Shown here piece after piece: positions 15,717 through 20,664 of a stretch of 64,000 bases of DNA. The DNA is from Escherichia coli. Lineage in GTDB: Bacteria; Pseudomonadota; Gammaproteobacteria; Enterobacterales; Enterobacteriaceae. The position numbers and the translations under genes are program-made. Under the pieces are notes generated by a model, which saw only the letters and a program-made list of their open reading frames with translations, made no database searches and had not been told where the DNA came from. Every line of letters starts with the position of its first letter. The stretch's first letter is position 1. The stretch lies in the NCBI RefSeq assembly GCF_003334255.1, contig NZ_QOWU01000003.1; one strand, 5' to 3'.

Positions 15717-18389
15717 TTAAGCAATGGTACGTTGGATCTCGATGATTTCGAATACTTCGATCACATCGCCAGTGCGGACGTCGTTGTAGTTCTTAACGCC
15801 GATACCACATTCCATACCGTTACGGACTTCGTTAACGTCATCTTTGAAGCGGCGCAGGGACTCCAGCTCGCCTTCGTAGATAACCACGTTGTCACGCAGA
15901 ACGCGGATCGGGTTGTGACGTTTAACCACACCTTCGGTAACCATACAGCCTGCGATGGCACCAAATTTCGGCGATTTGAACACGTCACGAACTTCCGCCA
16001 GACCGATAATCTGCTGTTTCAGTTCCGGAGACAGCATACCGCTCATCGCCGCTTTCACTTCGTCAATCAGGTTATAGATGACGGAGTAGTAACGCAGATC
16101 CAGGCTTTCCGCTTCAATCACTTTACGTGCAGAGGCATCAGCACGTACGTTAAAGCCAACCAGGATGGCGTTGGACGCCGCAGCCAGGGTGGCGTCGGTT
16201 TCGGTGATACCACCTACGCCAGAACCGATGATCTTCACTTTAACTTCGTCAGTAGACAGTTTCAGCAAGGAGTCGGAGATCGCTTCGACAGAACCCTGTA
16301 CGTCTGCCTTCAGGACGATATTCACTTCGTGAACTTCGCCTTCGGTCATGTTGGCGAACATGTTCTCGAGTTTAGATTTCTGCTGACGCGCCAGTTTAAC
16401 TTCGCGGAATTTACCCTGACGATAGAGTGCAACTTCACGCGCTTTCTTCTCGTCACGTACAACGGTAACTTCATCACCCGCAGCCGGTACGCCGGACAGG
16501 CCGAGGATTTCCACCGGAATGGACGGACCCGCTTCCAGCACTTCCTGACCCAGTTCGTTACGCATCGCACGAACACGACCGTATTCGAAGCCACACAGAA
16601 CGATATCGCCCTTGTGCAGAGTACCTTCACGTACCAGAACGGTAGCAACCGGACCACGACCTTTATCGAGGAAGGATTCGATAACCGCACCGCTCGCCAT
16701 ACCTTTACGTACCGCTTTCAGCTCCAGAACTTCCGCCTGCAGCAGGATAGCGTCCAGCAGTTCATCGATACCGGTACCCGCTTTCGCAGATACGTGTACG
16801 AACTGGCTTTCACCGCCCCACTCTTCCGGCAGGATGCCGTACTGGGAGAGTTCGTTCTTAACGCGATCCGGATCAGCTTCTGGTTTATCGATCTTGTTCA
16901 CTGCAACCACCACCGGTACCTGCGCCGCTTTCGCGTGCTGGATTGCTTCGATGGTCTGCGGCATCACACCGTCGTCGGCAGCAACAACCAGGACTACGAT
17001 GTCCGTTGCCTGCGCACCACGAGCACGCATTGAAGTAAACGCGGCGTGCCCCGGGGTGTCCAGGAAGGTGATCATGCCGTTTTCAGTTTCAACGTGGTAT
17101 GCACCAATGTGCTGGGTAATGCCGCCCGCTTCGCCAGAGGCCACTTTCGTTGAACGAATGTAGTCCAGCAGAGAGGTTTTACCGTGGTCAACGTGACCCA
17201 TGATGGTCACAACCGGCGCGCGCGGTTCAGCCGCAGCACCCGTGTCACGGTCGCTCATTACCGCCTCTTCCAGCTCGTTTTCACGACGCAGGATAACTTT
17301 ATGGCCCATCTCTTCAGCAACCAGCTGTGCGGTTTCCTGATCGATAACCTGGTTGATGGTTGCCATTGCGCCCAGTTTCATCATCGCTTTGATGACCTGA
17401 GAGCCTTTAACCGCCATCTTGTTCGCCAGTTCGCCAACGGTGATAGTTTCGCCGATCACAACGTCACGGTTAACGGCCTGAGCAGGCTTCTGGAAGCCTT
17501 GCTGCAGCGAAGAACCTTTACGTTTTCCGCCTTTACCGCCACGTACTGCTGCGCGTGCTTCTTCACGATCAGCTTTTGATTCAGCGTGTTTGTTGCCTTT
17601 CTTCGGACGCGCTGCTTTCGCGTTACGACCACGGCCACGGCCGCCTTCGACTTCACGATCGCTTTCGTCTTCTGCCTGGCGAGCATGTTGAGAAGTAGTG
17701 ACGTGATAATCGCTGGAATCTTCAGTCGGTTCCGCGTTATCAGTCCATTTGTTTTCTTCCGCCATACGACGTGCTTCTTCAGCAACGCGACGTGCTTCTT
17801 CTTCGAGTTTACGACGCGCTTCTTCTTCAGCTTTACGCTTGAGCTCTGCAGCTTCCTGCTCACGGCGGGCTTTTTCAGCCTGGGCGTTTTTAGTCATATC
17901 GTCTTGTTGATTGCTCACTTTGTCTTTTTCCGCAGCTTCACGTTTCGCTTGTTCAGCAGCTTCACGCTTAGCTTGTTCTGCGGCCTCACGTTCAGCTTTT
18001 TGTTGCGCCTCGCGTTTAGCCGATTCTTCTGCCTCACGACGGGCTTGCTCTTCCGCTTCACGCTGCGCTTGCTCTTCCGCTGCAAGGCGTTCAGCCTCTT
18101 GCGGATCGCGTTTCACAAAGGTGCGTTTCTTGCGGACTTCGATTTGTACCGATTTGCTTTTTCCACCGGTACCAGGAATGTTAAGGGTGCTGCGTGTTTT
18201 ACGTTGCAGCGTCAATTTGTCCGGGCCTGAATTTTTCTGATTCAGGTGGTCAATCAAAGTCTGTTTCTCTTGTGCAGACACAGAGTCGTCAGCAGACTTC
18301 CGGATACCTGCATCAGCAAATTGCTGTACCAGGCGTTCCACGGAGGTCTGTCGCTCTGCGGCCAGCGTTTTAATCGTTACATCTGTCAT
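15717..18389 (-). CDS. infB: Translation initiation factor IF-2, 890 aa
   Basis: ORF track; G-domain [21 protein letters not shown]; Glu/Ala/Lys-rich repeats near the N-terminus. Confidence 0.95.
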
Positions 18390-18413
18390 GCTGTTCCTTC
18401 CTGCTACAGTTTA

Positions 18414-20587: not shown

Positions 20588-20664
<77 letters not shown>

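Follow-up and report, generated by a model that had tools for sequence, protein, structure and literature searches.

The IF2 gene, infB, is a textbook case of several isoforms produced from one bacterial gene through internal starts. In E. coli K-12, tandem translation of infB was described by Plumbridge (1985), Nyengaard (1991), Sacerdot (1992), and Laursen (2002), as related in the papers that cite this work, and Mr values of 97.3, 79.7, and 78.8 k have been published for the three isoforms. The short isoforms are abolished by the substitutions g474c and t494c, and a deletion leaving 32 nt 5' of the IF2-2 start still permits expression of IF2-2 and IF2-3 (Madison et al. 2012). Retapamulin ribosome profiling (Ribo-RET) likewise yields specific peaks at the previously verified internal start sites of infB. 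More recently, formyl-methionine N-terminomics, which builds on the fact that retained formyl groups mark translation initiation and not proteolytic ends, listed 68 genes having peptides for two or three in-frame starts, among them infB (GUG158 and AUG165), which it counted as a triplet case (NAR 2026). A homologous pair of infB proteoforms has also been reported in Salmonella. Like infB, the E. coli genes clpB and mrcB give rise to an N-terminally truncated isoform from an internal start on one mRNA, and their sites were also seen by Ribo-RET; unlike them, infB has two internal starts placed seven codons apart, one of which is a GUG, with Shine-Dalgarno (SD) pairing that does not rise above background.

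The infB gene analyzed here lies in a 64,000-nt stretch of E. coli DNA (the window; contig NZ_QOWU01000003.1), where it occupies positions 15717..18389 of the minus strand, including the stop codon. As judged from the open reading frame list and the translation, it encodes IF2-1 (IF2-alpha), a protein of 890 amino acids with a computed mass of 97.3 kDa. The annotated infB of E. coli genomes is 100% identical to this copy. The NCBIfam model TIGR00487 (IF-2) matches residues 306-889 of the product with 987.9 bits, relative to a cutoff of 424.4, and Pfam locates IF2_N at residues 1-50 and 314-364, IF2_assoc at 56-94, GTP_EFTU at 393-549, and IF-2 at 665-779. The resulting domain order (IF2_N, IF2_assoc, GTPase, IF-2 domain, and EF-Tu domain 2) is that expected for IF2, and nothing observed speaks against this identification. 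The gene is a member of the metY-rimP-nusA-infB-rbfA-truB operon, with equivalog matches for NusA, RimP, RbfA, and TruB adjoining it, a tRNA-Met at 20588..20664 (the metY position), and both a rimP leader and an S15 leader detected.

The start of full-length IF2-1, AUG1 (18387..18389, minus strand), is preceded by the SD-like AGGAAGGA, and its anti-SD duplex of -6.5 kcal/mol falls in the top 6% among in-frame positions of infB. The original prediction held that codon 158 is a GTG and codon 165 an ATG, both in frame, and that they represent the start sites of the shorter isoforms. Both codons were confirmed from the sequence. Specifically, GTG158, the start of IF2-2 (IF2-beta; 733 amino acids, computed 79.7 kDa), lies on the minus strand at 17916..17918, where the plus strand reads CAC, and ATG165, the start of IF2-3 (IF2-gamma, or beta'; 726 amino acids, computed 78.9 kDa), lies on the same strand at 17895..17897, where the plus strand reads CAT. 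Their assignment to the short isoforms also stands, given the sites of the mutations, the matching masses, and the published Ribo-RET and N-terminomics work. The g474c change falls at nucleotide 474 of the coding sequence, the third base of codon 158, and t494c at nucleotide 494, the second base of codon 165; the three computed masses (97.3, 79.7, and 78.9 kDa) agree with the published Mr values. The published evidence for initiation, whether from mutagenesis, Ribo-RET, or N-terminomics, comes from E. coli strains with the same sequence as the window. Relative to the K-12 system, the gene, its length of 890 amino acids, GTG158, and ATG165 are all shared, the masses match, and the window itself shows no difference. 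Initiation at codons 158 and 165 of infB is already known biology, and a single infB mRNA with three in-frame starts would produce IF2-1 from AUG1, IF2-2 from GUG158, and IF2-3 from AUG165.

What is new in this analysis is the nucleotide-level conservation of the internal start region over 80 species. Every one of the 81 Enterobacteriaceae sequences has GTG at codon 158; at codon 165, ATG occurs in 75 of them, and another codon takes its place in Mangrovibacter, Trabulsiella, and Shimwellia. The internal translation initiation region, codons 151-161 (GAA GCT GCG GAA AAA GAC AAA GTG AGC AAT CAA; 17907..17939, minus strand), has a codon entropy of about zero across the 81 sequences, versus 0.5-1.9 at typical Ala, Val, and Arg codons nearby. 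Conserved valines elsewhere use mixed codons (V92, GTG 47 and GTA 34; V202, GTA 49, GTT 21, and GTG 6). The nucleotide sequence of codons 151-161, synonymous sites included, has thus probably been held constant by selection. With an invariant GTG and near-invariant synonymous sites, a clean nucleotide-level constraint is added to the textbook case.

A strong SD sequence was ruled out as the basis of internal initiation. The anti-SD duplexes of codons 158 and 165 (-3.5 and -2.3 kcal/mol, respectively) are equaled or bettered by 42% and 69% of in-frame positions, placing the pairing at background level. Some weak SD pairing at GUG158 may still come from a GGAA at -13..-10. Special mRNA structure at the internal starts was likewise ruled out (fold z = -0.48 for the 191-nt region), and a search for a sigma-70-like promoter consensus upstream of them gave no match, which constitutes weak negative evidence. 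The mean unpaired probability is 0.59 at codon 158 and 0.63 at codon 165, versus 0.39 +/- 0.10, placing these codons in the top 3% and 1.5% of infB. The fraction of A around the internal starts is 0.45-0.50 (0.50 in the region of codons 151-161), versus 0.27 for the coding sequence. An accessible, A-rich, and poorly structured stretch of mRNA may allow 30S subunits to load internally without a strong SD, and the folding calculations suggest that accessibility is what selects the internal starts, a mechanism consistent with published work on infB.

Immediately upstream of the internal starts, infB carries a first repeat array of seven imperfect 24-nt units (8 amino acids; consensus E-x-A-x-R-E-A-x) spanning codons 98-153 (17931..18098, minus strand). 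Tandem Repeats Finder (TRF) reported a period of 24 with scores of 79-94, and a repeat-family search found copies spaced by 24 nt throughout the array. Lag-24 identity is 0.70, versus 0.38 +/- 0.04 in 5000 codon shuffles (z = 8.1), none of which reached 0.70. The tandem repeats that the original prediction had described upstream of the internal starts are therefore real, and the array is larger than it had proposed; the repeat peptide quoted there corresponds to residues 135-155 (window positions 17925..17987). A second array, of 21- and 24-nt units of the (K/V)(L/A)EEEARR type, covers codons 174-213 (17751..17870, minus strand; TRF periods 21 and 24), with z scores of 4.0 at lag 21 and 3.2 at lag 24 relative to codon shuffles. 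Array 1 is translated in IF2-1 only; array 2 follows the internal starts and is shared by the three isoforms.

Repeat number was compared across strains, and length is not invariant, with whole-unit indels present in both arrays. Variation from strain to strain, as originally predicted, does exist, but it is rare. The count was obtained by gapped blastn with short queries against 5,426 complete E. coli genomes, using the identity bands expected for indels. In 61 of the genomes, one array aligned at less than 95% gapped identity, the outcome expected of an indel; this number falls to about 32 once one clone and one twice-assembled strain are collapsed (from about 1% to about 0.6%). Each of the 12 candidate genomes retrieved has gained or lost whole units in frame (-48, -24, -21, +21, +24, or +48 nt). 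The changes comprise eight kinds at the DNA level, some of them combined in one allele. Natural alleles of array 1 are -48, -24, +24, and +48 nt, and those of array 2 are +21, -21, and -24 nt. The region of the start codons is unchanged in every length allele examined. At the DNA level, two versions exist of both the +24 and the -24 allele, and +24 as well as -21 is found on different SNP backgrounds, which points to recurrence of the +24, -24, and -21 changes. Many E. coli genomes match the window's own 271-nt region with 100% identity, and K-12 MG1655 matches the +24 query at 91.9% gapped identity over the 271-nt span, the same value as other standard-length strains. Steffensen is said to have found, in 1997, that the N-terminal domains of IF2 were invariant in ten clinical isolates. 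Across thousands of genomes, IF2 does carry rare, recurrent, whole-unit length alleles, of which a partial catalogue is added here; no previous account of polymorphism in infB repeat length turned up in the literature searched.

Two other search strategies were tried and set aside. Megablast with a 701-nt query was blind to 24-nt indels, and alignments that it had split still showed at least 99% identity when re-joined. A composite query assembled from about 200 synthetic junctions, representing deletions and duplications (7,342 nt, designed to hold no 28-nt seed for the standard allele), still matched 2,375 genomes; its counts were unusable because SNP alleles create seeds from which alignments then extend. 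The composite-query list nonetheless helped in choosing true variants to fetch, and two of its top candidates, HNSQ2209 and 2018-18.25PC, proved to be of standard length.

Adjacent units have exact direct repeats of 8-15 nt in common, so replication slippage or short-homology recombination at these sites would occasionally delete or duplicate whole units in frame. The natural indels sit at direct repeats of 15, 14, 11, 11, and 8 nt, and at least one natural indel is found at each of the four longest with in-frame spacing (15 nt/24, 14 nt/21, 11 nt/24, and 11 nt/24). From these breakpoints, slippage appears to be the mutational mechanism, and homologous recombination between alleles could spread variants without new slippage events. 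Indels in array 1 would alter IF2-1 only, between the NusA-binding N1 subdomain and the remainder of the factor, and those in array 2 would alter all three isoforms. As in coding minisatellite-like repeats, the units are arranged head to tail, whole units are gained or lost in frame, and the breakpoints lie at direct repeats; unlike coding minisatellites, the units are about 70% identical, variation is near 1%, and the gene is an essential housekeeping gene instead of a surface or contingency gene. Taken as a whole, it is almost certain that the locus combines a three-start infB mRNA, embedded in its operon, with repeat arrays that occasionally gain or lose a unit in frame.

Several other explanations bear on one or the other half of this account. 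GTG158 and ATG165 might be coincidental, with short IF2 arising by proteolysis or from a separate shorter transcript. Start-like codons (ATG, GTG, or TTG) are indeed common in frame, with 8 among the first 300 codons, and neither internal start pairs with the anti-SD above background. Such codons are unremarkable per se; 158 and 165 are marked by their match to the published sites and by their conservation. Point mutations in these two codons abolish the short isoforms (Madison et al. 2012), Ribo-RET peaks sit specifically at the internal starts, and the formyl-based N-terminomics lists both GUG158 and AUG165. Coincidence is further opposed by the GTG in 81 of 81 sequences and the synonymous constraint on ten neighbouring codons, and a shorter transcript by the failure to find a promoter-like site upstream of the internal starts. 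Contradicted by published mutagenesis and profiling, this explanation was already refuted, and we give it practically no credence. Genuine internal initiation is therefore retained.

As for the arrays, the differences in length could be sequencing or assembly artefacts (long-read indel errors or repeat collapse), given that many of the complete genomes are long-read assemblies and that assemblers can collapse or expand tandem repeats. This is very improbable. The indels are exact unit multiples (21, 24, or 48 nt), all keep the reading frame, and their junctions fall cleanly at direct repeats; the arrays span less than 200 nt, far below any read length. Moreover, the same variant proteins turn up in numerous records contributed by several sources: each of the eight full-length variant proteins looked up is found on 2-398 public contigs (seven on 17-398, the eighth on 2). 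Two assemblies of strain H32, and likewise 29 assemblies of one clone, have the same allele. Equally improbable is a hypervariable locus of the contingency type, in which unit number is often switched to tune IF2. Length alleles do recur on different backgrounds, and the segment found only in IF2-1, which houses array 1, has been connected with NusA binding and with phase separation in vitro. Against frequent switching, only about 1% of the 5,426 genomes vary, array 1 has seven units in most Enterobacteriaceae genera sampled (eight in one clade), and the units are about 70% identical at the DNA level with exact repeats of at most 15 nt, whereas the repeats of phase-variable loci are short and perfect. 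Because all length changes are in frame, on/off switching is absent. The frequency of about 1%, together with the constant seven units in most genera, places the arrays well short of hypermutability; alternatively, selection against length changes may account for the rarity. Occasional in-frame gain and loss of units is thus the preferred reading of the length alleles.

Residues 98-157 consist of 30% E, 30% A, 13% R, and 10% K, with 17 opposite-charge i/i+4 pairs in 60 residues; residues 170-213 contain 20 such pairs. This E/A/R/K/Q-rich, charge-patterned repeat sequence probably forms a helical spacer, as suggested by its composition and by NMR work on IF2 domain I, which bears on such a spacer. 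The arrays presumably resemble ER/K-type charged single alpha-helix spacers, with which they share a 23% content of K+R, an octad/heptad periodicity, many i/i+4 charge pairs, and a location between folded modules, here N1 (1-50) and N2 (314-364). In contrast to ER/K spacers, the whole N-terminal region of IF2 is treated as intrinsically disordered in a recent preprint. The solved N-terminal fragment spans residues 2-50 only (1ND9). Domain I binds NusA, and for the beta isoform, which is without it, phase separation in vitro was robustly lost (recent preprint). On a more speculative and improbable reading, the unit number of array 1 sets the length of the IF2-1-specific tether that links the NusA-binding N1 subdomain to the ribosome-bound core, it may shift the alpha:beta ratio by way of the neighbouring internal initiation region, and the recurrent +8- and -8-amino-acid alleles have been selected. 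If so, these alleles would adjust the coupling of transcription to translation, condensation in the cold, or tolerance of DNA damage in certain E. coli lineages instead of being neutral products of slippage. Since array 1 alleles change the long isoform only, they offer natural variants for testing the effect of IF2-alpha linker length on NusA binding, cold adaptation, and genome maintenance.

Finally, two plus-strand antisense ORFs (17586..18230 and 17911..18240) overlap the repeat region of infB, and we take them for putative by-products of its GAA/GCN-rich repeats.

The locus corresponds to the E. coli metY-rimP-nusA-infB-rbfA-truB operon. Its infB ORF (15717..18389, minus strand) comprises 890 codons, and the encoded protein scores 987.9 bits against the curated IF-2 equivalog TIGR00487 (cutoff 424.4), with the Pfam domains IF2_N (1-50), IF2_assoc (56-94), IF2_N (314-364), GTP_EFTU (393-549), EF-G_D2, IF-2 (665-779), and GTP_EFTU_D2, in that order. 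The neighbors of infB are nusA, rimP, rbfA, and truB, a tRNA-Met lies at the metY position (20588..20664), and the rimP and S15 leaders were also found nearby. A 701-nt query over the repeats and internal starts was found in 5,426 of 5,426 complete E. coli genomes, with 100% identity to annotated infB in many chromosomes. Directly after the infB stop codon, the spacer to rbfA is occupied by a match to naRNA4 (nucleoid-associated noncoding RNA 4, Rfam RF02564; 15630-15700, minus strand, 68.1 bits).

Counted from the ATG at 18389..18387, codon 158 is an in-frame GTG (17918..17916) and codon 165 an in-frame ATG (17897..17895), just as originally read. Start-like codons are common in infB, with eight in-frame ATG, GTG, or TTG codons within the first 300, so the weight of these two must rest on other evidence. 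Their identity as the start sites of the shorter IF2 isoforms, as given in the original prediction, is settled by the literature: Madison et al. (2012) described two internal in-frame starts yielding IF2-2 and IF2-3 (79.7 and 78.8 k) alongside IF2-1 (97.3 k), and the masses computed from the window (97.3, 79.7, and 78.9 kDa) agree. The g474c and t494c mutations of that study, which abolish the short isoforms, fall in these codons: CDS nucleotide 474 is the last base of codon 158, and nucleotide 494 the middle base of codon 165. The ribosome profiling that had been proposed as a check already exists, as in published retapamulin-arrested data the infB internal start sites that had been verified earlier carry specific, well-defined peaks. 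Likewise, an N-terminomics study named the primary AUG, GUG158, and AUG165 for infB, one of its triplet cases and one of the genes for which its peptides supported two or three in-frame starts. A homologous infB proteoform pair has been published for Salmonella, and multiple IF2 isoforms have been described in other Enterobacteriaceae and in Bacillus subtilis. These two codons are the textbook example of internal initiation in infB, every feature of which that was testable here was found, and they represent known biology.

The 5' part of infB was compared across 80 species-level Enterobacteriaceae genomes and the window (81 sequences). The start valine of IF2-2 is GTG in 81/81, and ATG165 is retained in 75/81, the others having CAA (three Mangrovibacter), AAA (two Trabulsiella), or GTA (Shimwellia); these three genera keep the GTG and, judged by their sequences, probably make only two IF2 isoforms. 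Codon entropy is 0 or near 0 at codons 151-161 (GAA GCT GCG GAA AAA GAC AAA GTG AGC AAT CAA), where even four-fold Ala153 is GCG in 81/81 and six-fold Ser159 is AGC in 77/77. Codon choice is mixed at other conserved valines (V92, GTG 47/GTA 34; V202, GTA 49/GTT 21/GTG 6; V230, GTC 44/GTA 17/GTG 14). Together, these near-invariant synonymous sites and the mixed valines argue that selection acts on the nucleotide sequence around GUG158, beyond the protein alone. A second patch with little or no synonymous variation, containing no start codon, was seen at codons 85-91 (GTC CGC AAG AAG CGC ACC TTT; window ~18117-18137, minus strand), where V85 is GTC in 81/81, T90 ACC in 80/81, and F91 TTT in 81/81, and the two Lys codons vary somewhat more. 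One fetched locus, L060 (CACSKA010000008.1), is titled Chryseobacterium sp. 18061 and carries an Enterobacteriaceae-type infB with 82% identity to the query; it is nearly identical to that of L069 (Citrobacter sp. 18056). Mislabelling or contamination of this record is probable.

How the internal starts are recognized was approached computationally. Within 20 nt upstream, the strongest anti-SD pairing reaches -6.5 kcal/mol at AUG1 but only -3.5 at GUG158 and -2.3 at AUG165, and 42% and 69% of in-frame infB positions equal or better the values of GUG158 and AUG165, respectively. Mean unpaired probability in the -20..+15 windows is 0.59 (GUG158) and 0.63 (AUG165), versus 0.39 +/- 0.10 for the gene, placing them in its computed top 3% and top 1.5%; their A content is 0.45-0.50, versus 0.27 for the CDS. 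The AAAAAGACAAAG stretch directly upstream of GUG158 is unpaired in both MFE and centroid structures, and the stability of a 191-nt fold around the starts is not exceptional (z = -0.48). A search upstream of the internal starts found no sigma-70-like promoter match, and in a published deletion IF2-2/3 were still expressed with only 32 nt left upstream of the IF2-2 start. Most likely, the internal starts would be recognized through the accessibility and A-richness of their initiation region, not through a strong SD.

The tandem repeats originally noted upstream of GUG158 are real, and the 21-residue peptide quoted for them corresponds to residues 135-155, but their extent had been understated. 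Array 1 consists of seven 8-codon units over codons 98-153 (17931..18098, minus strand). TRF gave period 24 with scores of 79-94, a repeat search recovered copies spaced 24 nt throughout, and lag-24 DNA identity of 0.70 exceeds that of 5000 codon shuffles (0.38 +/- 0.04; z = 8.1), with protein identity of 0.65 at lag 8. Array 2, of 21- and 24-nt EEARR-type units, lies downstream of the internal starts on the same strand (codons 174-213; z = 4.0 at lag 21 and 3.2 at lag 24). E and A each make up 30% of residues 98-157, R 13%, Q 12%, and K 10%; this segment has 17 i/i+4 opposite-charge pairs and residues 170-213 have 20, the signature of a putative charged helical spacer. The only solved piece of the IF2 N-terminus is an isolated fragment of residues 2-50 (1ND9). 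Neither the beta (IF2-2) nor the gamma (IF2-3) isoform contains domain I (residues 1-157), which binds NusA, and in vitro phase separation was robustly lost in the beta isoform; that array-1 length tunes domain I functions is speculation of low probability.

Since 24-nt indels are not revealed by megablast, short queries (array 1, 271 nt; array 2, 211 nt) were run by gapped blastn against the 5,426 genomes. Array 1 gave 21 genomes at 90-95% identity and six at 80-90%; array 2 gave four and 30, respectively. Length varies across strains, with 61 of 5,426 records (1.1%) in the indel bands, of which 12 are sequence-verified and the remainder inferred from alignment identity and span. Among 14 loci fetched and aligned, 12 carry in-frame, whole-unit indels and two are of standard length. 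In array 1, STEC2018-553 has lost two units (-48 nt); O157 Al Ain, WS4437A-1, and DETEC-S565 have a third AAEQAKRE (+24 nt; two DNA versions on differing SNP backgrounds); NR301 has duplicated AQQKAERE (+24 nt); SY033 has two separate duplications (+48 nt); and E5 (donkey) and 2824 (chicken) are 24 nt shorter, in two DNA versions. Seven further genomes match one array-1 variant allele over a 295-nt span; over this span NR301 aligns at 95.9%. In array 2, CMZE046 has duplicated VAEEARR (+21 nt), AR_0149 and AH21H025, along with H32 (assembled twice) by blastn only, have lost 21 nt on two SNP backgrounds, and CNR20191027 has lost KLEEEARR (-24 nt). This last allele accounts for 29 records (CNR20191027, NZ_OZ369157.1, plus the NZ_OZ369xxx Esc series), evidently from repeated sequencing of a single clone, so that raw allele counts are inflated; with the clone and H32 collapsed, ~32 (0.6%) remain. 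Nearly all 29 assemblies are ~5.156 Mb.

Were the length variants assembly artefacts, their proteins would not be expected to recur, but all eight full-length variant proteins are present in a 15-billion-protein collection, on 398, 88, 64, 44, 39, 21, 17, and 2 contigs. Genuine alleles also fit the local sequence. When exact direct repeats at in-frame spacing were catalogued in codons 90-220, the longest four coincided with natural alleles: 15 nt at spacing 24 (18081) with the first SY033 duplication, 14 nt at spacing 21 (17801) with the +/-21 alleles, and 11 nt at spacing 24 with the CNR20191027 deletion (17828) and the +/-24 AAEQAKRE alleles (17966). The STEC2018-553 deletion is flanked by an 8-nt CGTGAGGC pair, 48 nt apart. 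The pattern fits an origin of these indels by slipped-strand mispairing or short-homology recombination. Because every aligned allele keeps intact both the GUG..AUG segment and the 24 nt 5' of it, array-1 indels change IF2-1 only, and array-2 indels change all three isoforms.

The expectation of slippage-prone repeats held insofar as whole-unit alleles occur at direct repeats, but they are rare and unit number is stable across genera, with seven array-1 units in most and eight in Phytobacter, Kosakonia, Siccibacter, Mangrovibacter, and Enterobacter sp. kpr-6. The arrays are slippage-capable, not hypervariable: degenerate coding tandem repeats in which whole-unit polymorphism is rare. The original prediction was correct and its interpretation supported. 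A search of a limited literature collection found no earlier report of infB repeat-length polymorphism, and a study from 1997 reportedly found the N-terminal IF2 domains invariant across ten clinical isolates; the alleles are a minor population-genetic footnote.

Among E. coli genomes, the infB 5' region (17700-18400) has one plasmid match and, in one genome, matches at up to five places, which suggests rare duplicated or translocated copies. Opposite the repeats, long antisense ORFs of 214 aa (17586-18230) and 109 aa (17911-18240) run on the plus strand, most likely just because the complement of GAA, GCN, and CGT codons is free of stops.
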